The notes: generated from the letters alone by a model not told the origin. A stretch of 64,000 nt of DNA from Prorocentrum cordatum (GCA_963575745.1 CAUYUJ010000159.1:434001-498000), one strand, 5' to 3'. Positions 1 through 63,258 are shown, counted from the first letter of the stretch. Numbers and translations: made by a program.

Positions 1-646
1 CGCCTACGGCGCCGCCATCGCCGCCAAGAGCAACAACAGGCCAAAAGAGATCGGAGACATCTACAATGCTTTCACCTCCAGGCGAGAAGCAACAAAGAGC
101 ATCTTCAGCATCATCATCTCACCCGACATTGCCGATTGCAGAGCCGACGACCACTACATCAACGGCAGCGGGAACCTCTACTCCCCAGCATGTTCGAAGC
201 ATTCCTTCTCAGCGAACCTCCCCAGAACATGACGGGGAACATTATCCCGATGCAGTGCGGCAAGCAGAACCTTCACCAGAGAAAAGAGCTGAAGATCTGG
301 ACCAGACTATGGAGCACCCTGAAGCTGAAGGTCCATCACACCAGGCGACCGAGCACCCTGCCAATAAAGATCCTGGCAACACCATCGAGCATCCCGAAGG
401 CACCTTGGATAAGACCCTCGACTACAAGGATCTGCAAGTTTCCAGATATGTCACACCATTTCCAATATGGTGGGCTTCTCCAGCAGAGAGTTCGCTCGAC
501 GAAGCTCATGGCGACTATGCAGCAGATTACATGAACCACGCGTTCCACGATGCAGAGCTTCTCCTACACCAGGCCCTTACCTCGGCATGAAAAGGAGGCT
601 CTCCTGGTAGTTCGAGGCCCCTGTCGTACCTCACGCTGTTTCTAAT

Positions 647-2514
647 ATGATTTCAAGGATGACGAGTGTTTGTGTATCGATCAGTGAGATTCTCACTCCA
701 GAGGAGATCATTGCCCATTGGCCAGCAGTTGGAGCAGCAGACAGGAAGGAGGTCAACAGTTCTGTCTCATGGTATCTTCAAGCTCGCACCAGCCTCAGCT
801 TCCAACAATACCATCGACGGTACGTGGGCTCGGAAGTGGTCAGATCGTTCAAAAGGGCTGGTGACAGATATTGTGGACGAGGCTTTCTTGACCGACAGAA
901 GACGAGTATTGACAGACACAATTCAACAGCGTCACGACTTTCTCACCGCTTGGCAGTATCGTTGGCAGCTCAATACGACCTCGTGATCGAGAGTCTAGAC
1001 ATCCGCACGGCCTTCTTGCAGGGCCTCAAGATTTCTGGAGTTGAACGCCGGGCAGCTGAACTGGGACACGAAGTGAAGCAGCTTCGGAAGGTCTGGTTCA
1101 AGCCACCTCCAAACGTGTGGAGGCATCTTCGAGACATCGATCGCAGTGGCATCTGTGTGCAGGACCAGGACATAACCTACTTCGTGCTCGAGCTGTTGAA
1201 GGCCATATATGGACTCGTTGACGGCCCTCTCTTATGGCAGCTGGCACTGGCGAACTTCATGGTCAAAGAACTGAGTTTCATGAGCGCCTATCATGATGAT
1301 ATGGTTTTACATTACTTATGCATGGGATATCGTGGCGATTTATATCACTCATGTGGATGACATCCTGGCGATCGCTTCTCAGAGCTTCTTGGACAGGACC
1401 TACATACGATTGTCAGAACGTTTCGGCGCAGTCAAGAGATGCGTTCTTCCATTGATAGATGTTGGAATACGTCATTCTATGCCATCACCAGGACACTACT
1501 TCCTGGATCAAGAACATTGACTGATGAAGCTAACTCCAGCAGAGGCAACCGACGCTAAGCGACTCAAAACGACAGCCTGCCCTTGGACAAGACAGAACTC
1601 AAGGAACTCAGACCGTTGTTGTGTAGTCTCTTATGGGTTTGCCTGACACGTGTGGATCTATGTCGTGGAGTTGTACTTCTACAAAGCGAAAGGTCAGCCC
1701 TCTGATGACACACTTGAAGCAGCATAACGCTCTCTTGGCCCGCGCCATCAAGAGCAAGACGATGAATGGACTTCACTTTGTAAGCTACAGTGGCCCCTAC
1801 GACTGGTATCTATCACGGACGCAGGACATGCATCAAAGAGGTCAGGTTATCCCTTTGAAAGCAAAATGGTCGAGCTCATGAGCGAGCCCACTGTGCACTA
1901 TGACAGCAAAGAGTTGTGGCCTATGACAGAAGCATTGAATTTCGGATGCTATGGTCACACTCTCTATTTCACGGCAAGGAAAGCAGCACGAGTGAGTCAC
2001 AACACCTCTCATGCTGAAACGAATGCATGTGTTGGTGGATTGCAGGTGGCACAACTAATCTCCTCACGGATGACGGAGTTGTTCGCTATGCAGATTACGG
2101 GCTCTCCGGCACGACCTCGTCAGCTATTGGAGTTTGGAACGAATAACGTGCTGTTGATTCCGTGCGATGCGGTGACCGACTGTATGGGCCTCTTCGAGCT
2201 GATCACAGGAACCAGAGGACTGACGACAGATAAAACCCAGAGGATATCGGTGATGTCCCTACGACAGGATCGTTTAACTGGAAGGTTTCGCAGGAGTAAC
2301 TCATATTCCCACTACGAGTCTGTTAGCCGATGGCATGACGAAGCTCGGAGTATTTCCTCAGTTACTACTCAAATCTACGACAGGATTATGGAAACTACAG
2401 GTTCAGGATAACAAGTTCATCAGGATCAAGCCCAGCGTGATCAAGCCGGGCTACAGCGAGGACGACCTACTTGACAGCGGACGCCAAGATCTACGAAGAT
2501 ATGATGATGTGTGA
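647..2514 (+). mobile_element. Decayed Ty1/Copia LTR retrotransposon pol (reverse transcriptase + RNase H), frameshifted
   Basis: SLDIRTAFLQG and LLKAIYGLVDGPLLW in 647..1360; ITHVDDIL (YVDD-type) in 1293..1520; RNase H-like RVSHNTSHAETNA...VTDCMGLFE in 1866..2411; HIPTTSLLADGMTK read at about 2302-2343 in another frame. Several frameshifts and stops. The upstream low-complexity ORF 66..590 may be the inter-domain linker. Confidence 0.88.
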
Positions 2515-43856: not shown

Positions 43857-45792
43857 TTCTCCTCCTCCTCCTCCTCCTCCTCCTTCTCCTCCTCCTCCTA
43901 CAACTACAACAAGAACACAACCTACTACTACTACTACTACCACCACCACCACCACCACCACCACCACCACCACCACCAGTACGACTACTACAACTACAAC
44001 TACAACTACAACTACAACTACAACTACAACTACAACTACAACTACAACTACNNNNNNNNNNNNNNNNNNNNNNNNNNNNNNNNNNNNNNNNNNNNNNNNN
44101 NNNNNNNNNNNNNNNNNNNNNNNNNNNNNNNNNNNNNNNNNNNNNNNNNNNCATTTTTCTTATTTTTTCCTCTCGACATGGACGTCCTGTCGTCCACGGC
44201 GATAAACCATTGCAAAAAATACCACAAAGAGCACACGCGCGCGTTCATGTCAGAATCCTACCGAACACAATGTGTTTGCAAGCATGTCAACATAACAACA
44301 TCAAAAACCCAATGTTTTTTTTTCACAAAAATTGTACAAATTTCCCGCCCGGGCTCTCTTGCTGAAATCATAGGAAAACCATAGGAATCTTAAGAATTCG
44401 GTCAAATCCAGCGATTTCGCGTCATCGCGCGGTGCACTCGCGATGCTCTGTCATGCACCCAGGCCGCGAATCCTCTGCAAAAAATACCACAAAGAGCACA
44501 CTCGCGCGTTCATGTCAGAATCCTACCGAACACCGTGTGTTTGCAAGCATTTCAACATAAAAACATCAAAACCCCAATGCTTTTTCACAAAAATGCTTTG
44601 GGGTGTCCTGTCAGACCGTCGGGCTTCCTCCGGCCACCTCTGGCTTCCTGCGGTGTACCGGGCCATTCTCGACTCGTCTGGCAATGCGTGCGCGGCATTC
44701 AACACGCGCTCGCCAGTTCCCGTCGGCAACCGCCATCGCGGCCGAATCAGCTGTACCAAACCGGCTGGCCGGTGTGACTTCGGCCCCCAATTGTGCCAGC
44801 TTTGCTTCTTTTGTTGTGGGAGGGCGGGTGGGACTGGGCATGCCATGCTTGACTCGCTCGAGCTGGCTAGCTTGACTCCTACTCCTACTCCTACTCCTAC
44901 TACTACTCCTGCTCCTGCTCCTACTCCTATCCTTATCCTTATAAGAATATACTCCTACTCCCCCCTCAGGCCGGCAAATAGCGGGCGCATCCGGGTGGTC
45001 CCATCCTAACCTGTAAAAAACAATACAAAATCAACATTTGTCTTATTTTTTCCTCTCGACATGGACGTCCTGTCGTCCACGGCGATAATCCATTGCAAAA
45101 AATACAACAAAGAACACACGCGCGCGTTCATGTCAGAATCCTACCGAACACCGTGTGTTTGCAAGCATTTCAACATAAAAACATCAAAAACCCAATGCTT
45201 TTTTTTTCACAAAAAATTGTACAAATTTCCAGCCCGGGCTCTCTTGCTGAAATCATAGGAAAACCATAGGAATCTTAAGAATTCGGTCAAATCCAGCGAT
45301 TTCACGTCATCGCGCGGTGCACTCGCGATGCTCTGTCATGCACCCAGGCCGCGAATCCTGTGCAAAAAATAACACAAAGAGCACACTCGCGCGTTCATGT
45401 CAGAATCCTACCGAACACCGTGTGTTTGCAAGCATTTCAACATAAAAACATCAACAACCCAATGCTTTTTCACAAAAATGCTTTGGGGTGTCCTGTCAGA
45501 CCGTCGGGCTTCCTCCGGCCACCTCTGGCTTCCTGCGGTGTACCGGGCCATTCTCGACTCGTCTGGCAATGCGTGCGCGGCATTCACCACGCGCTCGCCA
45601 GTTCCCGTCGGCAACCGCCATCGCGGCCGCATCAGCTGTACCAAACCGGCTGGCCGGTGTGACTTCGGCCCCCAGTTGTGCCAGCTTTGCTTCTTATGTT
45701 GTGGGAGGGCGGGTGGGACTGGGCATGCCATGCTTGACTCGCTCGAGCTGGCTAGCTTGACTCCTACTCCTACTCCTACTCCTACTCCTCCC
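43857..45792 (+). mobile_element. Insertion of two tandem non-coding units (about 880-bp period) with (CTCCTA)n tails, flanked by a 22-bp direct repeat
   Basis: ctcgttcaaccttgaacgatcg at 43835-43856 and 45793-45814; units 44152-44900 and 45035-45792 nearly identical; spans the assembly gap. Confidence 0.65.
44052..44151. other. Assembly gap (100 N)
   Basis: Run of n. Confidence 1.
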
Positions 45793-46899
45793 CTCGTTCA
45801 ACCTTGAACGATCGGCGGTTTTCGAATCGCCAGGCCGTTCAACAGAGCACGATGCTGGATCACCCGCGACCTTTCAACGTTGAACGCCAGCGGCGGGGTC
45901 GCCGCCGGTCGACACGACACGAACCTGCCGTAAGTTAGGCGATGTGGACTCCCAGGACCTCCTCAACTCCGTGGCGGCCCTGGATGGCCGAGCCTCGGCG
46001 GGTGCCCGAGCGAAACGCGGGGAGGGCCTCGGAAGCCCGAGCAGAAAAAGGCTGGACAGCCTCGGTACCCCTTCCCAGGGCCTCCCAAACTCCGCTCAGG
46101 GGAGCAGCGTGGACCAGCGCCACCGAGGACCCGCCGCATGGGGAGCGACCCCTGGGCGGTGGCACGCCTGAGCGTGGTCCTGTGCTGGATGACGCTCGGG
46201 CGTGCCACCGCCCAGGGGTTGGCCCGCCACCGGTGGGTTCTCGGTGGCGGTGGTCCATGTGCACAGTCGGACCGAGGCCAGAAGAACATCCTGCAAGAGC
46301 ACGAGACCCTCTGCCGGCCAGATCACGCAGAACATCCGAGGACACCCTCCCCAGGATGCACAAGAACATCCAACAAACACGAAGAACACTCGCACTCGAT
46401 GTACCCTCCCCGAACCTGCCTCGATCGTATACCTCGGTCCAACTGTACTTATTTGATCCCTGGCGGCCCTGAAGGGTCGAGTCCCGGCCCTCTGTCGGAG
46501 GGCGCTCGGGCAACTCTTGGAGGGGAGCCCCGCCCCGCCTCCTCGCGTCCGTCGTCGTCCATCGTCGTCTGCTTGCTCCTCCCCCCCTTCTCCCCCTACC
46601 TGGAGGAAGAACAAAAGCTGTATGAACATGAACTTTCGACGCTCCGCGCGGATGTCTTGGATCTGCGCTGGGCCCCCCTGGCGACGCCCTTGGCGCCTCC
46701 CCTGGCGCGCTCCGCTGTTTACGTTTACCCATCGGTCGGAAGAAGTAGGTAGAAACATGAAGTAGGAAGGCGTTGAACGTAGATTGGGTTCCGTCCGCCC
46801 CCTAAGGAGGACGGAGAAGGCGAAGCCACTCGATCATTGAAGTAGGAAGGCGCCTAGATTGCAATCTGGGAGAGAGCGTGATCCACCGCCGCTTTACTG

Positions 46900-47360
46900 T
46901 GGAAAATTCCCCCCCCTCTTCCTGCGGAACCTGGGGGTCTCCCCCCCCCTTCGAAAATCCCTCCCCTCCTGCGGGACCCCCCCCCTTCCCCTGGCAACCC
47001 CCCCTGCCCCCCTAACCCTTGCCCTTCCCCCCCCCCCGGAAACCAGCGGGGGTCACTACCGGTTCGAACCCCCCCCCCACCCCCCTCCAGAAAACCGAGG
47101 GGGTCACTACTGGTTCGAACCCATCCCCCCTCGCCGCCGGCAAACGATTCCCGGTCCTCGGGACAGTGGGACAGCGGAAAACCGGGGAAGTTCACTACTG
47201 GTTCGAACCCCCCCCTCCCCCCCCCTCCGGAAAACGGTGGGAGTCACTACCGGTTGGATCCCCCCCCTCCCCCCTTCCCCCCCCTCCAGAAAACCGCGAG
47301 GGGTCACTACCGTTCGAGCCCCCCCCCTCAACGCCGGCGAACGACTTCCGAATCCCAGAG
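46900..47360. repeat. Minisatellite, about 60-bp unit (gaaaacc...ggggtcactaccggttcgaacccccc)
   Basis: About 5 recognisable copies separated by C runs. Confidence 0.82.
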
Positions 47361-48440
47361 GTCTCCATGATCTTATTTTAAGATCCTGGATGTGGATCTT
47401 ATTTTATGTTGTGAAATTATAACATATATACTGGTGTTTCCCGTTTTCAACGACATCACCTTCATCACAGCATCGTCAGCATAATCAATGTCATCACCAT
47501 CACCATCACCATCATTATCACCATCGATTCCAAACCAAACGACTAGAGAGCAGGAACGCAGAGTTGAGCGAGAGGATGGGAGTAGGGTGGCGGTGGATCC
47601 TGCGCGCGGGTGAGAAAAATGTCAACAGATAGGCAGTTGGCGAGCGCGAGATTTCGAGGACATCTCAAGTGAAACGAGCGTGTCGCGTTTTCTCCTTGCC
47701 TCACTCCTCACTATCCTCCTCCCTTCCTTCTCTTCTTCGACATCTTCTCTCGCCCTTCATTTTCCCCTCCCCCACCCCGCCCCGAACCCCGCCCGCCCAC
47801 CCTCCGATCCTGCGGCGCAGAATAGAATCACAACACGGCACGAAACGCTCCGAGGCACGGCACGGTGGATAATTTTTTTATGGCAGATGTGCCTGTCTGG
47901 GATCTTCACCCACGAGTGTGGGCAACCGTTCTCGGCGAAGCGACCTCTTGGGCGATCTCTGTGATCGCTCACTCGATGATGGCAGGGTGCCATCAACAAA
48001 AACAGTGCAGCTTGCGTAGGCGTGCAACGGGGGGGAGGGGGGCCTGCGAAAAGGACGGAGTGTTCGTAAAGAGGGGGTTGGGCACCTTGGAGGCGAATCG
48101 AGGCACCTGGATTGATGCGAGGTGCGAACGGTGTAGAACTGATACGTGACTGACTGAGTGAGAGGAGGGCGAAGGAGCGCAGAGAGGGTGGGTGATGGAA
48201 GAGGGTGGGTGGAACGTAAACGGCGGCAGAGCGAGTGGAGACGGCGCAGAAGTCCCAGAGGATTTAAAAGCAAAGGAAGTGCCAGTGCACGAGGAGATGA
48301 CAGGGGGACGGAGGGGAGAGACGAGCCATAAAATTGTGAGCTCTTACGGGTGAATTCGCATGAGACCACACAATTGAGTTCGTGCTTCCGTGTCGAATGT
48401 GTGTCTTATGCTTGAATGCGTGTGTTCCGTGTGATGGGTC

Positions 48441-51400
48441 TCAAGCTGCAGGAAGTGCGCAAATAATTAAGTTTGCAACAGACTCGCAGAACTTCGGTGG
48501 GTATTCTTTGGAAGCTGCTTGGTCCTGGGTCTTATTGATCCACGCAGCATCCCTCCACCCTGTGCGCGCAGCGGCACCGCCCTCTCCCGTGCGGGCGCGC
48601 TTCGTTGACCTGGCACCAAGCCTATAGAGCGGCGTGCGCACGCCAGCTTCCTGCAACACGCGAATAGCAGCAGACTTAGAACAGCCGAGATGCTCACGCG
48701 CAGCGCACGCATCGTGCGTAGTGTATAAACAGAGAGGCTTGAGGCTCGTCCAGCCCCAAAAAGCAAGGTAAACAGTCATCTTCATGGCGCTGATGATGCC
48801 CAGCACGCCCTGTGGCGCGCGCTGTCACGAGCGCGGCGCGATGGAAGTGGCCAGCGCGCGCGGGGGAGGGGGGCTCTAGGACAGTGGATGGGGTGAACGG
48901 GAGACAACCATTGAGGTTGACGTCGTGTCTCTCCTTCCCTTCGTGGCGGGGCATTCGGGCTTTGGCCAATGAATCTGCGTGCGTAGCACCCCGCAGTTGT
49001 GGATGCGCGTAGAGGTGGGGGGCGGCGGCGTCGTCGGCAGTATGCTCGGCGTTGGCGAAGCATGCCGCGATCGCGGACTTGTGCGAACTATGAACCGAAC
49101 CAGCCGCGGGCGCAGACGTGTTCGTCAACGCTGTGTAGGTGGGTCGCGGGTGGGTCGCGGCGTGGTTCGCAGCGTCGGTCGCGGGGATCGTCGCGGGCGG
49201 GTCGCGGGCGAGGACGGTGACGACGACAGCATCACCAGCGCAAGAACGACGCAGCAACGCATTAACAATCCTCACCGCGGAACACCGCTTCGGCCACGCG
49301 CTCAGGGGCCATGAATAACCGTTCGGCCCCCTCACTCTCACTTGTACACATCCGAACTTGACGAGGGACAGGGAGAGGGGGGTGGGGACAGCGAGAGAGA
49401 GAGATAGAGAGAGAGAGAGCTGCATTATAGACAGACAATAAAGCTGGCACGCTGTACAGCGCGGAACGCCGTCGCTCCCAATCATCTTCCAGTTGTAGCC
49501 TGGATCCCCCAGCCATACCTCTGACGATCGTTGCCCCGCTCGACAACTCTCGGCGCGGCTCCACAGAGGGGCGGGTGGAATGTAGGGGGGTTCAAGCGAC
49601 CACAGGAGGAGCGGAGAGCTACGACAACACGAATCCGATGTTGGTGCGATGGGTAGTTACAACGCCGTTCCCGACCGAATGGGACATAGAGACGACCGTA
49701 ACGCGCCGCAGGATCCGTCGCCAGCTCTCTCGCGCTGCCGACACGGTTGATGTGCGGTTGGGCGCCATTTGGACGCATCCAGGTCGCGTCCAAATTGCGT
49801 TCAAGTCGCGCTCGCAGGGTGTCCGCGAATTTTGGGCGCGACCTGGACGCGTCCAAGTCGCGTCCAACACCGTGGCACAAATTGAACTGCACGCGCGGGC
49901 GGATCCTGCTGCGGCAACAGAGAGTAGGTGCAACGCGTGCGACTTTGAAATGCAATCGGCTGGCGGGCAAGGGCGGCTGGAATGCTGCAATTCATATCGT
50001 GCCCACCTGCCCCTTTCTAACCTCCTGCCACCTCGCCCACCGCCTCATGACCGCCACAGTCATTGTCTAGGTGGGCTCGGAGAGTGCGCAGTCCAGGGAC
50101 ATCACTTGAGAACGCGCCATGCCGAGTGAGAGATCATATCGTTCGAACTCGAATGGGGGCTCGAGTGGTCTCGATCGCGGCACAGACCGTACCTTGCCAA
50201 AGTAAGCCGCAATGCGTTATATGTGGTCGGTTAACGTGCAGGCTCCCGTTTCAGATTCTGCCCTCGTAGTATGAAGAGCGACGTTGACTTCGGCTTAGGC
50301 ACAGCTGGCATAGTCCTGGACCGCACTAGGACATAGATGTCACGGTGAACTAGTTCGGCTCGCCTTTTATCTTCACGTTTGCGCATATCAGTCTTGCCAG
50401 TCGTTTGTTTCATCCGTTTTGTCCGTCGGTTTTTCCATCTCATCAACCAAACTGGATAACGTGTACCTGAATGGGTCGGCCATCCCCGTGGCGGATCCAT
50501 TCAGGTACCTGAACAATGTGCACCGAGTTGTCGGACCCATCGTAATCTAATTCTAGACGCTTCGCGTATCCCCACCAGCCCGTCCAGAAATGAGCCCCAG
50601 GGGAGTGGAGGTGACGAGGGAAGCGGGGGAGCATGCAGAAGAACAAAGAGCGGGTTGAGCCGCCATACGCCCCAAGAGGGGGAGGATGTAGGAGGAGTCG
50701 TCGTCGTCGGAGTAGGAGGAGGAAGACGAGGAGCAGGAGGAGGAGCAGGAGGAGGAGGGGGAGGAGGAGGAGGAGGAGGAGGAGGAAGATGAGGAGGAGG
50801 AGATGGAGGAGGGCGAGGACGAGGAGGACGAGAAGGAGGAGGAGGAGGAGGAGAAGGAGGAGGGGGAGGAGGGAGGAGGGGGAGGAGGGAGGAGGAAGAA
50901 AAAGAGGAGGAGGAGGAGGACAATGGCGAGCTTGGGGGCCTCTTGGGCCGTCTTTGGGGCCTCTTGGCGGTCCCGGGGGCCTCTTGCGTATCGCGGGGAG
51001 CCTCTTGCGGCCTCTTGGGGGTCTCTTGGGGGCCTCTTGGAGGCCTCTTGGGGGCCTCTTGGGGCCTCTTGGGGCCCTCTTGGGGCGCTCTTGGGGCGCT
51101 CTTGGGAGCCTTCGAGGCGCTCTTGGGGCCATCTTGGAGGAGATCTATCAAAGAAGGGGGGTTCCCCAATTAGCGCTGCCCCTCTAGAGTGCCTCGAGTC
51201 GCCTCTTGGGCTCCCCAAGAGGCCAAAATCCTTACAAAACCTATGGAAAATCAATGTTTTTTGCTTTCTCGCATTTTCGCTCTTGGAGCCTTCTTGGGCC
51301 ATCTTGGGAGCCTCTTGGGGCCTCTTGGGGGTCTCTTGGGAGCCTTTTGGAGGCCTCTTGGGCGCCTCTTGGCGTCTCTTGGAGCCTCTTGGGGTTCTCT

Positions 51401-54400
51401 TGGGGCGCTCTTGGGGCGCTCTTGGGTGCCTTCGGGGTGCTCATGGCGCCATCTTGGAGGAGATCTATCAAAGAAGGGTGGAGCTTTAATTAGCCCCGCC
51501 CCTCTAGAGTGCCTCGAGTCGCCTCTTGGGCCCCCCCCCAAGAAGCCAAAACCCGTCCAAAACCTACAGAAAATCATTGTTTTTTGCTTTCTCGCCTTTT
51601 CGCTCTTGGAGCCGTCTTGGGCCATATTGGATTCTCTTGGGGCCTCTTGGGAGTCTCTTGGGAGCCTCTTGGAGGCATCTTGGGCGCCTCTTGGGGCCCT
51701 CTTGGGGCGCTCTTGGGGCGCTCTTGGGGCGCTCTTGGGAGCCTTCGGGGCGCTCTTGGGGCCATGCTGGGAATATATATCAAAGAAGGGGGGGGCCTCA
51801 ATTAGCCTCGCCCCTCTAGAGTGCCTCGGATCGCCTCTTGGGCCCCCCCAAGAGGCCAAAATCCTTGCAAAACCTAAGGAAAATCAATGTTTTGTGCTTT
51901 CTCGCCTTTTCGCTCTTGGAGCAGTCTTGGGCCATCTTGGGCGCCCCAACGCGTCGCGGAACGCCCCGTCCAGGTCAGTGGGGGGGGGCAAGGGGAGGGG
52001 TAAACCCCTCCCCGAAGGGAAAGAAGGGGGGTTGGCAGAGGAAACGCTCTAGACCACCTACGCCCTAAAGGGCTGGTGGGATTCATATGTATTTCGCTCA
52101 GCTCTTGCCTATCCAGTTCACCCTCATCCTCGAATCCCACCAGCCCTTTAGGGCGTAGGTGGTCTAGAGCGTTTCCTCTGCCAACCCCCCTTCTTTCCCT
52201 TCGGGGGGGGGTTTACCCCTCCCCTTACCCCTCCCCACTGACCTGGACGGGGCGTTCCGCGACGCGTTGGGACGCCCAAGATGGCCCAAGACTGCTCCAA
52301 GAGCGAAAAGGCGAGAAAGCACAAAACATTGATTTTCCTTAGGTTTTGGAAGGATTTTGGCCTCTTGGGGGGGCCCAAGAGGCGATCCGAGGCACTCTAG
52401 AGGGGCGAGGCTAATTGAGGCTCCCCCCTTCTTTGATATATATTCCCAACATGGCCCCAAGAGCGCCCCGAAGGCTCCCAAGAGCGCCCCAAGAGCGCCC
52501 CAAGAGCGCCCCAAGAGGGCCCCAAGAGGCGCCCAAGATGCCTCCAAGAGGCTCCCAAGAGACTCCCAAGAGGCCCCAAGAGAATCCAATATGGCCCAAG
52601 ACGGCTCCAAGAGCGAAAAGGCGAGAAAGCAAAAAACAATGATTTTCTGTAGGTTTTGGACGGGTTTTGGCTTCTTGGGGGGGGGCCCAAGAGGCGACTC
52701 GAGGCACTCTAGAGGGGCGGGGCTAATTAAAGCTCCACCCTTCTTTGATAGATCTCCTCCAAGATGGCGCCATGAGCACCCCGAAGGCACCCAAGAGCGC
52801 CCCAAGAGCGCCCCAAGAGAACCCCAAGAGGCTCCATCCAAGAGACGCCAAGAGGCGCCCAAGAGGCCTCCAAAAGGCTCCCAAGAGACCCCCAAGAGGC
52901 CCCAAGAGGCTCCCAAGATGGCTCCAAAGACGGCTCCAAGAGCGAAAAGGCGAGAAAGCAAAAACATTGATTTTCCTTAGGTTTTGGAAAGATTTTGGCC
53001 TCTTGGGGGGCCCAAGAAGCGATTCGAGGCACTTTAGAGGGGCAGCGCTAATTGGGGACCCCCCCTTCTTTGATAGATCTCCTCTAAGATAGCCCCAAGA
53101 GCGCCTCGAAGGCTCCCAAGAGCGCCCCAAGAGCGCCCCAAGAGGGCCCCAAGAGGCCCCAAGAGGCCCCCAAGAGGCCTCCAAGATGCCTCCAAGAAAC
53201 CCCCAAGAGGCCACAAGAGGCTCCCCGAGATACGCAAGAGGCCCCGGGACCGCCAAGAGGCCCCAAAGACGGCCCAAGAGGCCCCCAAGCTCGCCATTGT
53301 CCTCCTCCTCCTCCTCTTTTTCTTCCTCCTCCCTCCTCCCCCTCCTCCCTCCTCTCCTCCTCCTCCTCCTCCTCCTCCTTTTCCTTTTCCTCCTTCTCGT
53401 CCTCCTCGTCCTCGCAGTCCTCCATATCCTCCTCCTTATCCTCCTTCTCCTCCTCCGCTTGCTCCTCCTCGCGCTCCTCCTCCTACTCCTCCTCTTCCTC
53501 CTCCTACTCCGACGACGACGGCTCCTCCTACATCCTCCCCCTCTTGGGGGATATGGCGGCTCACCCCGCCCTTTGTTCTTCTGCATGCTCCCCCGCTCGC
53601 CCCAAGAGGGGCCCCAAGAGGCTCCAAGAAGCGCCCCAGAGGCTTCCAGGATGATCCCAAGAGACTCCCAAGATGCCAAAATCCATCCAACACTCTGCAA
53701 ATCAACGTTTTTGGCTTTCTCGCTTTTTCGCTTCCGATGGCCATCCGAGGCCTGAAGATGGCTCCAAGATGGCCCAAGAAGGCACCAAGAGAAGCCCAAG
53801 AGAGCTCCAAGACGGCCCCAAGAGCGCCCAGGAGCGCTCCAAGATTGCCCCAAGAGCGCCCCAAGAGCAACCCAAGAAGGCCCCAAGAGGCCCCAAGAGG
53901 CCCCCAAGATGCCCCCAAGAGGCTCCCAAGAGATCCCCAAGAGGCCTAAATATGCTCCCAAGATGGCCCAAGACGGCTCCAAGAGCGAAAAGGCGAGAAA
54001 GCAAAAAACATTGATTTTCCTTAGGTTTTGGACGGAATTTGGCCTCTAGGAAGGCCCAAGAGGCGATTCGAGGCACTCTAGAGGGGCAACGCTAATAAGC
54101 AACCCCCCCTTCTTTGATAGATCTCCTCCAAGATGGCCCCAAGAGCGCCCCGAAAGCTCCCAAGAGCGCCCCAAGAGCGCCCCAAGAGGCCCCAAGAGGC
54201 CCCCAAGAGGCCTCCAAGAGGCCTCCAAGAGACTCCCAAAAGGCCACAAGAAGCTCCCCGAGATACGCAAGAGGCCTCCGGGACCGCCAAGAGGCCCCAA
54301 AGACGGCCCAAGAGGCCCCCAAGCTCGCCATTGTCCTCCTCCTCCTCCTCTTTTTCTCCCTCCTCCCTCCTCCCCCTCCCCCTCCTCCGCCTCCTCCTCC

Positions 54401-56515
54401 TCCTCCTCCTCCTCCTCCTTCTCGTCGTCCTCGTCCTCGCCCTCCTCCATCTCCTCCTCCTCATCTTCCTCCTCCTCCTCCTCCTCCTCCTCCTCCCCCT
54501 CCTCCTCCTGCTCCTCCTCCTGCTCCTCGTCTTCCTCCTCCTACTCCGACGACGACGACTCCTCCTACATCCTCCCCCTCTTGGGGCGTATGGCGGCTCA
54601 ACCCGCTCTTTGTTCTTCTGCATGCTCCCCCGCTTCCCTCATCACCTCCACTCCCCTGGGGCTCATTTCTGGACGGGCTGGTGGGGATGCGCGAAGCGTC
54701 TAGAATTATTCCTCAACTGTCATGAAATCAGTGTTCCGCATTGGACACGGATCCGATTCAGGGGCTACTTCCGCGACATATGCTATCAGCAACTCATTGA
54801 CCGAACGTTGGGGGGAACGTTCTTTTCTCAGCAGGGGCCATGCCAAACTCGAACCAACTTGCGATACGGCCCATACACATGATTCCAGTTCGGGAACGAG
54901 CCGCCTCGAGAGCCAGTTTTCGGAAATCCGGCCTCGTCAATATCACCATCCCCCCATCGATTTACTATCTACTACGCTACCATTCCTCAGAGCATCATCC
55001 TTATCTCCTCTCATCCACTCGTACCATTCTGGCTCATCCGCGAGCCTTTTCCACGTCCTCCTCGCCCTCCGCCCCCTGCCCATCGCCTCTCAGTCTGCGA
55101 CTCGACCTGTTCTAGAGTAGGCAAGGGCCGTTCTAATTCTACCAGCGATTCGAGCAGTCTCATGGGCGCCCGTTAGGATTTGGATGTCATGGTCAGCAAC
55201 CCCCCCCCTCATCCCGACAGAATACGCACGGGCGAGCGTTGGTCCTTGACCGAGTCAACGTGCCAAAAGATGGAGCACGATGGGTTCTCCAAAAGCACTT
55301 TCACGTTGCGGGCGTCCGCGAGTACCATCAGCCATGACCTGGGCAATCCGCTGTCTGAGGTGTTTGGGTGCCCACGCTGCCGTTCTCCCTCTCAACCGAT
55401 CTCTGTCCACATCCGCCTCCTGCCCGCTTCCTCTCACTCTCACCCTCACCGTCTTCCGTGCCGCCCCCCCCCCCCTCCGCGCTGCCCTCTTCCCCCCTCT
55501 TACACGCAGCCCGCCTATTCCGATCCGACCCGAACGCTTCCGAGAGACCGAGTCTACACAGTCGGTCTGTGTCGCATCGCTGCGTGAGTAGGTGGGCCGT
55601 GCGTTTTACAATGCATGCCGTCGCCTAGGGTCCGCGCAACTAGTTGCGCCTAAGCATGCGCGAGTCATGCTGCATACCGCTGTTGCGAATCCCCGCCCGC
55701 CCCCCAGACGCTATCACTCCAGGCCCTCTAAGGGTCGCACACAGCTTCGGCCACAAAGTTGGCCTCGAGCACGTCCCGCCGATCTTCATCACCACGGATG
55801 TGGCTGCCCCTGTCCCGTTTCGTGTGGAAGACTGTGATGTTCAACCACGAGGAACATTCGGGCTCGAGAACGAGCGAGCCGCCAGGCTTGACCTGTAATA
55901 CTCCCAGTGCGCAAGTAAGGAGCCCAAGCAAGGTGCACACGCCCTCGGATTCATGCGACGTACGCCTAGGACGAACGAAAGGAAGCGACGACGTCTCCCC
56001 TATAGAGCAGACAACGTTGAACGCGACTTGGACGCAGACTTGGACGCAGTTTGGGCGCACCCAGGTTCGCGTCCAAATCACCGCCAAGCCGCGCCCAGCG
56101 CGATCTGCGTCGAGGGCGCACAAGAGAGGGGTACACGTGGGGTGGGGAGGCTGGGCACAAGCGTTGCACCCCCACGCGGCCTGTCAAATCCTCGTGCTTT
56201 GAAGCCCCCGGCGATCAAGGCTCGCGTAATGCCACCAGTTCCACAGAACACTTCAAAACAGTCTAAGTATTGATCGATTACAACGGGCCCTTCCCCCTTC
56301 AGCCACACAGCAACCTCATTTACAGCCGCATCCATCAAGTATTCAGAACTGTCACTAGTCAGACGTCGCTCCCCTTCGTTCGGCCACCGCTGGGAAACTA
56401 TATCAACGAGCCAACTTGGTGCGCCGTGGCCCAAACCCAGCCTCTCGGCCATGCCTCTGGACAGGCGGTGCGTAAATGTATTTAGAATAGCCAAGGGCGC
56501 CAAGCACGCGGGCAT
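48441..56515 (-). CDS. Spliced C5 cytosine DNA methyltransferase-like gene, 4 exons: 56515-56181, 55965-55741, 55338-55245, 48809-48441 (1023 nt, about 340 aa; start codon uncertain, alternative ATG at 56452)
   Basis: Exons join in frame (phases 2,2,0) with donors GC, GT, GA and AG|G acceptors. Motifs appear in order: I FEVFCGTGGI, II RGFD, IV LEPECSSW (Cys kept), VI VLLENPSCSIFW, VIII-like YLAFWGWTSLKP, X-like SKEYPPKFCESVANL. Confidence 0.8.
50548..52084 (-). mobile_element. Non-autonomous Helitron2/Helentron-like element E1 (left arm of inverted pair)
   Basis: On minus: 5' gaatcccaccagccc-ttta-gggcgtaggtgg hairpin; 3' gggctggtggggat-acgcgaagcgt-ctagaatt; interior ccaagag repeats and a (CCT)n block. 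Confidence 0.7.
52132..54708 (+). mobile_element. Non-autonomous Helitron2/Helentron-like element E2 (right arm, with internal duplication)
   Basis: Near-identical reverse complement of E1 at both ends; about 1 kb longer through duplicated internal modules. Confidence 0.7.
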
Positions 56516-58909
56516 GGTGGTGAAGGGTCCGAGAGAACGTGGCTCGGTGACACCGCTGGGCCAGATTGCGCACGGTGAGGTTCAGAGACTCGTCTGTGAA
56601 GGTCGAATATAGACGAGGAGGGCCAAATTCCCATATCCTGTTCGGAAAATGACTACGTGCATCGAGTGATCAGCTGCTCTTGCATCATCCCCGATGTCTG
56701 ACATCAGCCCATTAAGAGCCCCGACATCCCCCACTTGGAGAACATTTTGGGGAAGTGAGGGACGTGGACTGAGTGCAAGAGCAGCCGATCGTCGATGCCT
56801 CGGTGGGCGGAATTCTCACAACCTGAAACGTTGTCATGGATGAGGGACGAGTGAGTGGGAGGGACGAGACTAACATGTAATGCCGATTCACCAGATAAGA
56901 ATAATAACGATGCGAATCATCGTCACCACCGACGATGGTGACGATGACTCGGAGGATTTACCATATGATGTTGGACGAAGAGTTCGGAGGACGAGTTGGA
57001 GCAAAGAGAAGGGTGAGGAGGAGGAGCTGAAGGAGTGGGGAGGGCTCCTGTGGGTGAGATGGCAGAACAAATGCCACTTTGGGGTAAGCCTCACCTTCGC
57101 ATGTTGGGCGTGCACAACGACCCGCGCTGCAGCATCCAAAGCACACGTGTACTCGGAGTGGTTCGGTCGTGCGTCCATCTCCTTCGTCACCCTGAACCAC
57201 GCCACCAACGCGTCAACACTCATCATCAGAGATCCAGCACACGGCACACGGTCGAAATATGTGTCCAATAGATATTTACAAAACGGGATTAGCATCGACA
57301 TCTCCGCTCCTTTGATTTTCATGGGGCAGCCTGGGTGGGGTTCCCCCCCCCTCCTTTGTATTGTGAGCCCACCCCCGATCATGCCTGATGTGAGTCTGCC
57401 CATTCTTTGTTCATGAGGTATGTTGTTGATGTCGTACCATGCATGTAACTCTGATTCCATATGTTTCACCCGTTGTGGAATAGCCCGCTTGCGGGCCACA
57501 TTCGCCTCTAGAACCCTCCACAATACTGCCGAACCTAGCCGTTGCGCCACACCTAAATGGACAGTATGGAGCACGTCCAGGGCAAGTGTGCTTGCGGGGC
57601 TTGACTTCAACATGTTAGAGAACAATGGGCTTCGATGCGTCACTGGGTCCAATGCCGCTCCTTTAGCGTCTCTTTGAACCCGCCGGAACACAATGTCAAA
57701 AGGCACCGGCTGGCTGTACACCAATCGGATGTCTGGAAGCTCAGGCGAGGGGAGCACCGCATCATTAAGCATTAAAGGAATCCCCGCCACCTCTTTGACT
57801 ACAACGAGCCCACCAACCTTTTTTGACTCTGGGTCTGCAAAGCGCAACATGCCTAGTACCTGTGCCAGCTTTTCCTGAGAATCAATACGAATGGTGTGCT
57901 CGCAGCGGTCACATGCTTCTGAATACGATTCTGGATCTCTGTCTGGGAACGGAAGGCCCTCGGAGCTCAGGAAACCAGGGTATGTCACGTGCAAAGAATC
58001 CAGCGGCGCCGAGCAACACGGACAAGGATTGAAAATGCTGTTCCACCCTGACAGCCCGAACGTTTTCTGGAACTCAGCCCAATCCCCCTTGATGTACAAC
58101 AATACTGCCCTGTACCCGAGGCCCCTGCCTGCCCGCCCATCCTCTGCCCAGCATGTCCCGTCGCACTGTGCATCGGGAGCCCGCCCTCTCACCATGGCAC
58201 TGACCTGCCACTCCACGACACGCATAAACGCGTACAACGTACAGTGCCCTGCACACCCGCAAGCACATTTGTCGAGCGAGCGTAAGTACCCAATATAGTG
58301 ACGCTTGTGTGTAAGCAGATTAATGATACTAACGTTCAGGACGCTGTCCGCGCGCCCCGCATGAAGAGGCGAATGCCGCACTGAGTCTGCGTATAATGCT
58401 ATGGGAACGGGCCACTTTCCAGTTTCGTTCAGACATTGCTGCACGTGGGCGTGATTTTGATAGCTGCGGGTCAGCATGACAGAGTTTACATCATCGGCGC
58501 CATATTCCAAAGTTTGTCGGCACACATCATCGTGCAACACTTCTTCTGATATTGATTCGAACACAAGTTGCACGTCTGTGCTTGCCTTTGTCAAATGAGC
58601 TCTCCCGCGAACTTGCATCGGGATGGTTATTTTCATCATGGCACCGACTGCAGGCATACGTTTATCTACATGATCTTTATATTTGCCAGACTGTTTACCA
58701 GGAGCCATCCCCCACGAATCCCAATGAGCCCCTCCAATCCCAGCCCTGGCGCAAAAATAACATCCAACTGCAAGGTCTTTAGCCGTCATTTGTCTGCCCG
58801 AAACGTAAATCCCAACTAAGTGGTGAAATAAATCGGATCCCGCCAAACGTTGCTGCGCACCATCGGTGCTGGGCTTCCACATGCGACGGGGTAATCTTTT
58901 GGGGGCCAT
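56403..58909 (-). CDS. CMC-type (CACTA/EnSpm-like) DDE transposase, 2 exons: 58909-57048 and 56637-56403 (698 aa from MAPKR)
   Basis: Long uninterrupted ORF with IALYADSV (D), YIKGDWAEF (D), FNPCPCC, LALDVLHTVHLGV and LTPKWHLFCHL. A GA..AG intron joins in frame to IWEFGPPRLYSTFTDESLN (E). CxxC and HxxxH between the second D and the E are CMC signatures. Confidence 0.85.
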
Positions 58910-59824
58910 GATGCGTTCAATATGGGGTTGGGTAAGCTCTGAAACCTGATTGCGCCAAAACTGCGGACTTGATGCCGTGACCACAGCCCTTTCCCTCAGC
59001 ATCACCCCGCAGACAAGAGCACCAGGCACGTGCGCGGCGCCAAATGCACCTGCACATCGCGCGCGTGCTCGGTACCAAATGCACCAGCACGTTCGCTTCA
59101 AACTGACGATCTTGCGATGCCGTGCGATCTTGGAAGGAGCGCAGCGTTGCACCCCACCCGCCCCGCGCACATCACGCGTGTCCTATGTGTCCTCGATGTC
59201 ATGTGATCTCTGTATGTTCATTGCACGCGCGGAAGTGTGTTGTTGCGCTCATTGGCATTCGAGCGTGCACGATTATGACATGATTCATCACTCTCCTGAT
59301 GCGCGCGCACATTATATTCCAGACTGTGTCATGGTCCTCTCGGCCATGCAGCTCGATCCTCGAGCGTTCGTCTGCCAGACGGGCATCGCAGAGAACAAAT
59401 GTAGCTGTCACGCAGCGCGATTGGATTCACCCTCAGCGCTGTCACACAGAAAAGCAACAACTCAGCTCACTATTCTGTCCCACGACTCGGTCGCTGAGGC
59501 CAGGACTGCTGTACCCCGAGCCCTAGACTAAAGTCGCTGCGTGTGCCACGACATGCAGGCTGCTGGGCTGGCTTCTTGTATAGTTCCTCCCGCCTTTGTA
59601 CTACATGTGCTAATAATTGGATGTGCCGTGTTTTTTTGTTTTGTTTTCTCTCTCTATATATATATGTATATACATGAAACGTTCATACATGTGACCATCT
59701 GTCTACATAGACACACGCTGATGTTTATACGACCATCTGGCGACACACGCGGTGTATGCATTGGCATCCTTTTGTAGTGTTACGGGTTCCTCTCTGCTTG
59801 TCTATCTGTCTGTCTGTCAGTATC

Positions 59825-59877
<53 letters not shown>

Positions 59878-60075
59878 ATCTCTCTCTATGTGTATATATA
59901 TCGTTACACTACATACTTGAGCATGTACGTGCGCATGTTGAAGGCATATGCGTGGTGCGCCTGTCTCTCACGTGCCCGCGACAATGCCTACACGTCGTGC
60001 TTAGTTCCTATCATATCCGTCTCTACTTACTGTTAGTGTCACAGCTGTACATGCGCCGCAGCAGGCCATCATCTT

Positions 60076-61080
60076 AATTATTGACGCTTCGCGTACCCCC
60101 ACCAGCCCATCCAGAAACGATCAGCAGGGGACTTGGCGAGTCAGGGGCGGCAGGACGCATGTAGTCGCGCAGCAGTCTTCGAGGAAACAAGGATCACACA
60201 TAGCTTCCCGCATTGAAGTTTACTATGGAAATCAGTACAAGCTACGATTGTGCTTCGATGAGTGGTGATGAGTGTTTCGATGACTCGTAATGGCTGATGC
60301 ACTGATTTATATCTGAAACTCGCGTGCGTTCCGAAACTTGGAGGCATCTTTGGGCTCTCTTGGGACTCTCTTGGGCCCCTCTTGGGGCCTCCTGGGGCTC
60401 TTGCTTGGCGCTCTCTTGAAGTCCTCTTAGGGCCTTCGTGGGGCTTCGTGGTGCTCTATTGGTGCGTCTTGGGGCCCTCTTGGGGCTCTTTGGGGGTCTG
60501 GGAGGCCTCTAGGAGCCGTCTTCGGCCGCATATATCAAAAGAGGGCTGGTCTCAATTCCCATCGCCCCTCGGAGACACAAACATGCCGTCTTGGGCCCCT
60601 GTTGGGCCGCTCTCGGATCGCTTTTGGGCGCTCTTGGGGCAATCTTGGGTGGGGCCCTCTTGGGCGTCTCTGGGAGCTTTCTTGGGCTATCGTGGGTCCA
60701 TATTGACGCCTGAAGAGCCCATCTGAAGCGAAAAGGCGCCAATGCCAAAAACATTGGTTTCCCATAGGTTTTGGAGCCATGTTGGCCTCGGAGGGCATGC
60801 GAAACCGTCTTGGAGCAGTCTTGGAGCCTCTTGGATGCGTGTCTGAGGCTATCTTGAGCCAAGTTGATGAATGTTGGGCCATCTTGGTGGCCATCTTGGG
60901 CTCTCTGAGGCTCTCTTGGGGCCATCTGGAGCCCAAAATGACCCTATGCCACATCGCTGCCCTCGCCGTCCAGAGGCTGGGAGGGCGGGGGGGAGGGGGT
61001 GGGTAAACCTCCCCTCGAGCAGGAAGAGGTTGGCAAAAGAAACACGCTAGACCACCTCCGCCCAGAGGGCTGGTGAGATT
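60076..61080 (-). mobile_element. Non-autonomous Helitron2-like element E3
   Basis: On minus: 5' aatctcaccagccc-tct-gggcggaggtgg; 3' gggctggtgggggt-acgcgaagcgt-caataatt; diverged inverted copy of E4. Confidence 0.68.
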
Positions 61081-61178: not shown

Positions 61179-61460
61179 TTGGACGGGACTTGGACGGGAC
61201 TTGGACGGGACTTGGACGGTACTTGGACGGTACTTGGACGGTACTTGGACGGTACTTGGATGGTATTTGGATGGTACTTGGATGGTATTTGGACGGTACT
61301 TGGACGGTACTTGGACGGGGAGATGGGGGTTTTATATGTATTTTACAAGGTTTCGTCAACTTGGACGGGACTTGGACGGTACTTGGACGGTAGCCGTTTT
61401 GGATGGGTTTTGGATGGTACTTGGACGGGACTTGGACGGTACTTGGACGGTGTTTGGATG
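61179..61460. repeat. Tandem 11-mer (cttggacggta/cttggacggga)n
   Basis: About 20 copies in two blocks. Confidence 0.9.
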
Positions 61461-62272: not shown

Positions 62273-63258
62273 GAATCCCACCAGCCCTCTGGGCGGAGGT
62301 GGTCTAGCGTGTTTCGTTTGCCAACCTCTCCCTGCTCGGGGGGGGGCCCCCTCCCAGCCTCTGGGCGGCGAGGGCAGCGATGTGTCAGAGGGTCCTTGTG
62401 GGCTCCAGATGGCCCCACGAGAGCCTCAGAGAGCCCAAGATGGTCTCCAAGATGGCCCAACATACCTCAAGCTGGCTCAGGGTAGCCTCCGACACGCATC
62501 CAATATGCTCTACGACGGCTCCAAGGCGGTTTCAAGCGCCCTCCGAGCCCTCCAAGGACCACTCCAAGGGGCCAACATGATTCCAACACTTAGGGAACAA
62601 TGTTTTTGGCTTTGGTGCCGTTTCGCGTCCGATGTGCTCTTCAGGCGTCAAGATGGGCCCACGATGGCCGAAAGGGAGTTCCCAGAGACGCCCAAGAGGG
62701 CACCAAGAGCGCCCAGCAGCGCTCCGAGAGCGACCCAACAGAGGCCCAAGACGGCAGGTGTGTGTCTCCGAGGGGGGGCGATGTGAATTGAGACCAGCCT
62801 TGTTTGATCTATGCGGCCTAAGACGGCTTCTAGAGGCCTCCCAGCCCCCCCAAAGAGCCCCAAGAGGGCCCTAAGACGCCCCAAGAAGCCCCACCAATGC
62901 CCTAAGAGGACCTCAAGAGAGCACCAAGAAAGAGCACCAGGAAGCCCCAAGAGGGGCCCAAGAGAGTACCAAGAGAGCCCCACGATGCCTCCAAGTTTCG
63001 GAACGCACACGAGTTTAAGATACAAATCAGTGCAAGAGCCATTACGAGTCATCGAAACACCCATCACCCCTCATCGAATCACCATCGTAGATTGCACCGA
63101 TGTCCATCTTAAACTTCAATGCGGGAAGTCATGTGTGACACTTGTTTTTTTCCGAAGACTGCTGCGCGAATGCATGCGTCATGCCGCTCCTGATTCACCA
63201 ACTCCCCTGCTGATCGTTTCTGGATGGGCCAGTTGGGACACGCGAAGCGTCAATCATT
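62273..63258 (+). mobile_element. Non-autonomous Helitron2-like element E4
   Basis: 5' gaatcccaccagccc-tct-gggcggaggtgg; 3' ac-acgcgaagcgt-caatcatt; interior colinear with E3. Confidence 0.68.

Follow-up and report, generated by a model that had tools for sequence, protein, structure and literature searches.

A putative CMC-type transposase gene overlaps a spliced methyltransferase-like gene of a new family in Prorocentrum cordatum

Could a DNA transposon in a dinoflagellate nucleus carry a cytosine methyltransferase of its own? This question is raised by a locus of Prorocentrum cordatum, positions 48,441 to 58,909 of a 64,000-nucleotide (nt) stretch of DNA (GCA_963575745.1, CAUYUJ010000159.1:434001-498000; hereafter the window, all positions being counted from its first letter; G+C content 59%). 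For this locus a prediction made from the sequence alone (the original prediction) had proposed a cut-and-paste transposon with a transposase and, directly behind it, a spliced C5 cytosine methyltransferase gene. The results presented here leave hardly any doubt that the locus contains two real, intact and intron-bearing genes on one strand (minus), a transposase gene followed by a methyltransferase-like gene. No internal stop codons are present in their six exons (∼3.1 kb of coding sequence for both genes), and the splice sites of all four introns are intact: each acceptor reads AG/G (the slash marks the splice junction) and the donors are GA, GC, GT and GA. According to a review (PMC11453091), dinoflagellate splice donors include GC and GA besides GT. 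We conclude that the genes are real and tightly linked, and that a self-methylating two-gene transposon is a reasonable reading of them with about an even chance of being correct.

The transposase gene was recognized from a minus-strand frame that is open from 59182 to 56891 (764 amino acids (aa) from stop to stop) and that constitutes the longest open reading frame (ORF) of normal composition in the window. Without splicing, the frame would give a protein of 672 aa from ATG to stop, ending in a non-homologous serine-rich tail (SPPHSFSSSS...). Four proteins were found for the transposase among 7999 scored candidates: P0002 (51% identity, E 7.6e-212), P0003 (47%, E 8.3e-192), P0005 (28%, E 2.1e-56) and P0004, which is dealt with below. 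P0002 and P0003 end where the window frame enters the serine-rich tail, and P0005 continues past that point with ...LPKHHLFIHLLRGAVANGNPRFYATFRDEGAN..., the window counterpart of which, IWEFGPPRLYSTFTDESLN, is located 410 nt downstream in another frame. Joining 58909-57048 to 56637-56406 yields a product of 698 aa with one terminal stop that aligns to P0005 without a gap across the junction, the spacing H-L, 8 aa, G-x-P-R-x-Y being equal in both proteins. In tblastn searches exon 2 matched the C-termini of relatives at seven metagenome loci at E < 1e-3, the best of them (L001) at 1.3e-11. The original prediction of an intact 698-aa ORF was therefore right about length, motifs and intactness, but the protein is encoded by two exons and not by a single ORF.

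Also in agreement with that prediction, the D/D/E, CxxC and HxxxH motifs are conserved. Residues D175 (in ALYAD), D276 (KGDWAEF), C296 and C299 (C-P-C-C) and H613 are invariant in all nine aligned transposase sequences; H617 (H-L-F-C-H) is invariant in the four closest ones, and L008 has D at this position. The candidate catalytic E is present in the F-T-D-E of exon 2 and aligns with that of the relatives. Because D, D, E, C(2)C and H(3)H are all present and conserved, the protein fits, at the level of motifs, a DDE transposase of the CMC/CMCT kind (EnSpm/CACTA-Mirage-Chapaev-Transib-Plavaka group). Profile searches speak against this placement. Neither the transposase ORF nor any of eight relatives reached a Pfam cut-off, the matches at E ≤ 10 being unrelated ones with E > 0.1, so that no model of the CACTA or Plavaka kind was among them; NCBIfam gave nothing for the relatives P0002 and P0005. 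A sequence search of the PDB with the transposase profile returned no match either, and neither the transposase family nor the methyltransferase-like family was found in viral contigs.

The structure of the second gene was delineated with P0027, an intron-less relative of 313 aa that covers all four exons. The four best tblastn matches of P0027 in the window are collinear minus-strand high-scoring segment pairs (HSPs) that coincide with the four exons (Table 1). These exons join in frame into a protein of 340 aa (ATG at 56515) or 319 aa (ATG at 56452) with a single terminal stop. Since ATG 56515 reads ATA in a second DNA data set, X1, the start at 56452 is the likelier one. Compared with P0027, the spliced 319-aa product gave one HSP (35% identity over 257 aa, E 1e-41) without gaps at the junctions. 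A family hidden Markov model (HMM) that had been built without exon 3 detected the exon 3 ORF at E 3.1e-5, and exons 3 and 4 are contiguous in P0009, P0013, P0024 and other relatives, P0024 (225 aa) spanning exons 2-4. The collinear ungapped alignment with P0027 and the HMM match of exon 3 show that the model of four exons is sound, also as regards the last one at a distance of 6.4 kb; on this point, comprising the four in-frame exons, the 94-nt E-N-P exon and the distant last exon, the original prediction held, with 319 aa as the likelier length in place of 340 aa.

Intron 3 is long because a palindromic, foldback-like element of 4.2 kb sits inside it. The outer arms of this element (50548-50882 and 54374-54708) are 93% complementary and its inner arms (51380-52084 and 52132-52836) 99%; its termini read TAATTCTAGACGC..., possibly with TA on either side. 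Partial copies of the end of the element are present upstream of the transposase gene, at 60075-60430 and ∼63217-63251. A short motif, ...GCGTCCAAGTCGCG..., is repeated at 56016-56094 (intron 1), at 49768-49868 (intron 3) and in an upstream array at 61179-61438.

Table 1. Positions in the window of the two genes, of the P0027 matches and of the palindromic element (a slash marks a splice junction)
Feature	Position	Strand	Details
Transposase exon 1	57048..58909	-	ATG 58909; ends ...CHLTH + AG; donor CACAG/GA; open frame
Transposase intron	56638..57047	-	410 nt, GA...AG/G; read-through tail without counterpart in relatives
Transposase exon 2 and stop	56403..56637	-	IWEFGPPRLYSTFTDESLN...; acceptor AACAG/G; stop 56405-56403; tblastn matches to relatives' C-termini
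Methyltransferase-like exon 1	56181..56515	-	ATG 56515 or 56452; FEVFCGTGGITRALIAGGFKARGFD; motif I FEVFCGTGG, GFD; donor GACAG/GC
Methyltransferase-like exon 2	55741..55965	-	LVLEPECSSW (motif IV Cys); acceptor CCTAG/G; donor GCTGT/GT
Methyltransferase-like exon 3	55245..55338	-	94 nt; VKVLLENPSCS, motif VI-like; acceptor CCCAG/G; donor CAAG/GA
Methyltransferase-like intron 3	48810..55244	-	6435 nt; contains foldback-like insertion; relatives without gap here
Methyltransferase-like exon 4 and stop	48441..48809	-	VYLAFWGWTSLKP...TGW...YPPKFCESVANLI; acceptor CCACAG/G; TGA 48443-48441
P0027 residues 62-86	56254-56180	-	tblastn E 1e-3
P0027 residues 86-163	55967-55737	-	tblastn E 3e-9, 41% identity
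P0027 residues 164-192	55334-55248	-	tblastn E 0.73
P0027 residues 203-309	48782-48465	-	tblastn E 1e-8
Palindromic foldback-like element	50548..54708	.	4.2 kb, built of 11-bp tandem repeats; inside intron 3 and no part of the gene

The methyltransferase-like protein belongs to a previously undescribed family. With the last exon as query, HMMER found 20 matches at E ≤ 1e-3 among 1.84 billion representative proteins, seven of these matches at E ≤ 1e-10. Nineteen were kept as family members; P0026 (2707 aa) was dropped as a spurious match to a repeat protein. Most matches are exon-sized ORFs, and P0027, located on a contig of 1468 nt, is a cluster mate of P0024. Longer proteins holding exon 2 were sought by a word-based protein search, also with the family alignment, and none was found. 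Six members (P0007, P0011, P0012, P0014, P0015 and P0017), 30-98% identical to the last exon of the window, come from one EukProt set; P0007 is the one with 98% identity and the other five are diverged paralogs. In X1, contigs were present that match just the core of motif I (56226-56266) or of the E-N-P exon (55258-55294) and have different flanks. Judged from these sequences, the family is multi-copy and diverged. The EukProt set is labelled Pyramimonas sp. CCMP1952 and its protein numbers exceed 469,000, so its label or purity may deserve a look; P0007 was not counted as evidence for expression.

Several lines of comparison indicate that this protein belongs, with good probability, to the C5 cytosine methyltransferase superfamily, as a member that has diverged far. 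When 50,697 phage records were searched with P0027 by tblastn, all 25 matches obtained, weak ones with E values of 0.1-9, fell on one Streptomyces phage gene, which is annotated as DNA methylase and matches PF00145 (E 3.9e-10) and phrog_363 (E 2.8e-41). Likewise, all three PHROGs families that P0027 matched at E ≤ 1 are annotated 'DNA methyltransferase' (phrog_363, 0.0022; phrog_757, 0.0034, from PDC to ENP; phrog_2882, 0.54). In hhalign comparisons with five phage PF00145 enzymes P0027 scored a probability of 91.6% (E 8.3e-7, 102 columns); P0027 together with the spliced window protein scored 94.4% (E 9.3e-8) and the whole family 93.4% over motifs I-IV. Of the two controls, an unrelated profile scored 0.2% and the phage alignment, when reversed, 0.1%. 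Exon 1 of the window by itself reached 75% (E 2.6e-5) against phage C5 enzymes. The alignments pair VFCGTGG/VFCGHGG with LFCGAGG, GFD/GID with GVD and EPECS/SPDCN with SPPCQ, and motif I and the acidic motif II, which in C5 methyltransferases serve to bind S-adenosylmethionine, align as FEVFCGTGG...GFD against LDLFCGAGG...GVD of the phage PF00145 enzymes.

Structure comparisons gave results of the same kind. With a model of P0024 (mean predicted local distance difference test (pLDDT) score 72), C5 methyltransferases made up 23 of the 37 listed Foldseek rows, all of them weak and none at E ≤ 0.001, and weak matches in BFVD included several phage and algal-virus cytosine methylases. In the Atlas, a structurally similar cluster of phage proteins (template modelling score 0.64) contains PF00145 in 42% of its members, and another similar cluster, of 896-aa proteins, contains RVT_2 in 82%; taken as a lead only, these clusters hint that the methyltransferase-like domain travels with mobile elements. 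With exon 2 alone, all Atlas scores were below 0.9. The full-length model of P0027 was not used for structure searches, and the rows of window exons 1 and 2, which were scattered by MAFFT, were excluded from the fold alignment.

The C5 assignment also has results to reckon with that point the other way. No Pfam match was obtained for P0027 (E ≤ 10), for the 19 family members (E ≤ 1) or for the window exon ORFs (E ≤ 1), and exon 2 of the window alone gave no hhalign match to the phage profile. In addition, the N-terminal half of the full-length P0027 model, for which the alignment has a depth of one sequence, is of low quality (pLDDT 30-50). NCBIfam returned nothing for the family, nor did PDB sequence searches with exon 2 and with the family profile. 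The homology check suggested along with the original prediction came out positive by hhalign (94.4%); Foldseek gave weak matches for the P0024 model, and a PF00145 match was not obtained.

The motifs themselves present a similarly divided picture. Motifs I and II align, as had been predicted, but motifs IV and VI are altered, and the VIII- and X-like motifs can be matched by eye only. The motif IV Cys pairs with that of SPPCQ in the alignments and is present in all three sequences that cover the region (window, P0027 and P0028), two of which are more than 90% alike; the N-terminal parts of P0019 and P0031 upstream of the exon 2/3 boundary could not be aligned and were excluded from this judgement. 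The Pro preceding this Cys is replaced by Glu in the window and by Asp in P0027. At motif VI the family has L-E-N-P on a predicted strand, and every member spanning the motif has E-[NQ]-P where the canonical form is E-N-V; hhalign placed the I-E-N-V of the phage enzymes on V-L-E-A-N and not on L-E-N-P. The R-x-R of motif VIII is absent, the corresponding stretch, by eye, being AFWGWTSLKP (family consensus GAFG...KP). Methyltransferase activity is uncertain because P-C, E-N-V and R-x-R are altered and PF00145 does not recognize the protein, and we would predict an active DNA C5-methyltransferase only tentatively, at less than an even chance.

What ties the two genes together is their overlap. 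The ATG of the methyltransferase-like gene is located inside exon 2 of the transposase gene, in another frame, which gives an overlap of 113 nt (ATG 56515) or 50 nt (ATG 56452); the next Met codon (56335) lies 68 nt past the transposase stop. The succession without a gap on one strand that had been predicted is thus confirmed. This overlap with the last exon of the transposase gene is the sole positive argument for a single unit. We regard it as an evenly balanced call whether the two genes are two cistrons of one transposon-derived unit, and put the chance that the pair is one mobile or formerly mobile unit at even or slightly below. Such a unit would be a young, low-copy element, possibly without recognizable ends any more, whose two genes would be transcribed together and move together. 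In its accessory protein, motif I (F-C-G-T-G-G) and the acidic motif II would hold S-adenosylmethionine; the protein would act on a flipped pyrimidine, presumably a DNA cytosine, by means of the conserved Cys (P-E-C) and Glu (E-N-P), and would mark the DNA of the element itself or its targets, with a possible role in silencing.

A considerable number of results argue against a joint mobile unit, and most of them would be expected if the two genes were chance neighbours, that is, if a transposon remnant or insertion had come to lie beside a member of a separate multi-copy family and the two neither moved nor acted together. We consider this explanation possible but on balance unlikely. No terminal inverted repeats (TIRs) with a score of 11 or more were found between the flanks 46800-48445 and 58905-60600 (single copy); wider scans returned low-complexity matches only, and no CAC...GTG termini and no target site duplications (TSDs) of 2-3 bp were found. 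A second copy was sought in the window, without success. Hence, with neither TIRs nor TSDs nor a second copy in hand, the two-gene mobile unit of the original prediction is not supported by these features. From 271 pattern matches in metagenome contigs, 26 relatives of the transposase were confirmed, and the DNA surveyed around them contained no methyltransferase-like match in any case (best tblastn E 0.14; best E value of the family HMM, over 1001 ORFs, 1.5). In the relatives L012, L008, L010 and L025 and in P0005 the ORF stops 33-42 aa after the D-E motif, which identifies them as stand-alone transposases, and P0027 is a stand-alone ORF on its 1468-nt contig. Moreover, dinoflagellate genes are mostly co-oriented, according to the review cited above (PMC11453091), so that adjacency on the same strand is by itself weak evidence. 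The region is rich in repeats, among them the foldback-like element of intron 3 and a copia-type reverse transcriptase fragment at 611-1357, and a family with at least six diverged members in one protein set is abundant by itself. Chance does not readily account for a second gene whose start falls within the final exon of the first or, with the Met at 56335, no more than 68 nt past its stop, which is much tighter than ordinary spacing. Besides, the survey covered distant relatives (24-34% identical) with short contigs (1-5 kb) and left aside those with 47-51% identity.

One protein, P0004 (496 aa; NCBI 'unnamed protein product [Prorocentrum cordatum]', UniRef name '60S ribosomal export protein NMD3'), the only annotated protein in which both parts are joined, was considered as an independent linked copy, since the pieces in which it aligns take in a transposase slice (58207-57683) and the E-N-P exon (55340-55239). 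This was rejected: all 13 pieces (84-100% identity, minus strand) fall along the window itself, from 62163 to 3096 (∼59 kb), and P0004 is accordingly a chimeric gene model of the same locus drawn through repeats.

Data set X1 bears on another explanation, namely that the pair consists of immobile relics or of domesticated host genes and that the methyltransferase-like protein is dead or acts on another substrate, for example RNA; this we hold to be improbable. X1 contigs are collinear with the locus, introns included, and differ from it at 18 positions in 54750-59300. Seven differences lie outside coding sequence; in the transposase gene six are nonsynonymous and two synonymous, in the methyltransferase-like gene three are nonsynonymous and none synonymous, and one further difference is the change of ATG 56515 to ATA. 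Divergence is ∼0.4%, about equal in coding and non-coding parts. The selection that had been read from the intact frames is thus not borne out, as nine nonsynonymous against two synonymous changes give no sign of purifying selection in this comparison, a weak test given so few changes. They would fit a young, neutrally drifting copy that has not had time to break, and they count, with the lost upstream ATG, against a functional unit and in favour of decay. The same holds for the 4.2-kb insertion in intron 3, for the changed catalytic motifs (P-E-C, no R-x-R) with no match to PF00145, and for the depth of X1 contigs, which is 10-12.6 over the genes and 8.3-9.6 over the flanks and is therefore alike, although depth is not copy number. 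A search for a signal of methylation decay was negative, with no bias in the CpG context of the X1 differences and no depletion of CpG over the genes (observed/expected 0.85-1.0). Decay is difficult to reconcile with six exons without a single internal stop, with splice sites that are whole in four of four introns, with a motif IV Cys in each of the three sequences covering it and with Glu and Pro of E-[NQ]-P in every member spanning this motif; besides, a ratio based on only 11 coding differences has little statistical power. We give very little credence to yet another possibility, a fusion protein in which alternative splicing links the transposase to the methyltransferase-like domain. The coding regions do overlap, and because the first exon of either gene has a phase-2 end with AG, skipping of an exon would remain in frame. 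The product would lose the catalytic E of the transposase as well as motif I, however, the relatives of each protein stand alone, and a search for longer forms, which is weak evidence, found none.

Other features of the window are a fragment of an ORF at 611-1357 (+), with a weak match to copia-type reverse transcriptase (RVT_2, E 5.7e-6, below the Pfam cut-off), and the ORF next to it (1728-2408), of normal composition and without a match; together they look like a broken retroelement. The window also has an assembly gap (100 N) at 44052-44151, which is 4.3 kb downstream of methyltransferase-like exon 4.

Mobile elements with enzymes that modify DNA have been described in other settings. Fungal DNA transposons (EnSpm, Plavaka, ESTA, KDZ and others) carry a TET/JBP dioxygenase (Kojima 2025, PMC12730594). 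They resemble the proposed element in being cut-and-paste transposons of the CMCT group with a second gene that acts on cytosine modification; according to that report, however, their passenger removes or oxidizes 5-methylcytosine, and complete elements are on record that have TIRs and TSDs and exist in many copies, whereas the present locus has a methyltransferase-like passenger in a dinoflagellate host and yielded no termini and no second copy. Mariner-1_OLpv, from an Ostreococcus virus, is a DNA transposon that codes for a C5 DNA methyltransferase besides its transposase (Bao and Jurka 2013, PMC3627910). It is described as having a Tc/mariner transposase, a place in a giant-virus genome, a restriction-type endonuclease and a canonical methyltransferase (CDD E 9e-72); here, by contrast, the transposase would be of CMC type, the locus is nuclear and spliced, an endonuclease was not seen and the protein has no Pfam match. 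SymbioLINE-Dnmt and SymbioDIRS-Dnmt3 of Symbiodinium carry their own cytosine methyltransferase, with de novo CG methylation in yeast (de Mendoza et al. 2018, PMC5890265). As reported there, they are mostly intron-less retrotransposons whose enzymes are detected by PF00145 and keep key catalytic positions, whereas the present locus combines a DNA transposase with a gene of four exons whose product has changed motifs and goes unmatched by PF00145. A literature search for C5 methyltransferases carried by DNA transposons of eukaryotic nuclei found nothing closer, which is no proof that there is none in print.

In sequence, the closest proteins to which the family can be linked are compact phage C5 methyltransferases, such as that of Streptomyces phage Gilson (PF00145, phrog_363; hhalign 92-94%). 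In the phage enzymes, which are ∼215 aa long, the motifs read P-P-C-Q, I-E-N-V and R-x-R. Their counterparts in the dinoflagellate family are P-[DE]-C, E-[NQ]-P and K-P, and its proteins extend into a long C-terminal part of their own (TGW...WV.G...S..YP..FC). Compared with EnSpm/CACTA-Mirage-Chapaev elements, the transposase lacks a Pfam match, and its relatives turned up only in metagenome or assembly data of marine and other origin.

The contest between parasite and host over epigenetic marks can be seen in mobile elements equipped with a DNA-modifying enzyme of their own. If the two genes do form a unit, they would add a new combination to the known cases, a methyltransferase-like passenger on a CMC-type DNA transposon in the nucleus of a dinoflagellate. 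The furthest-reaching version of this reading, which we think doubtful, is that of a nuclear CMC-type dinoflagellate transposon with its own spliced enzyme from a new methyltransferase branch (P-[DE]-C, E-[NQ]-P), whose domain would be a passenger of different mobile elements and may mark element DNA or perform something other than plain C5 chemistry in a dinoflagellate genome that is heavily modified. Since Pfam does not see the family, surveys of DNA methyltransferases by PF00145 would miss it. Regardless of the linkage, its changed catalytic motifs make the family a candidate for altered activity.

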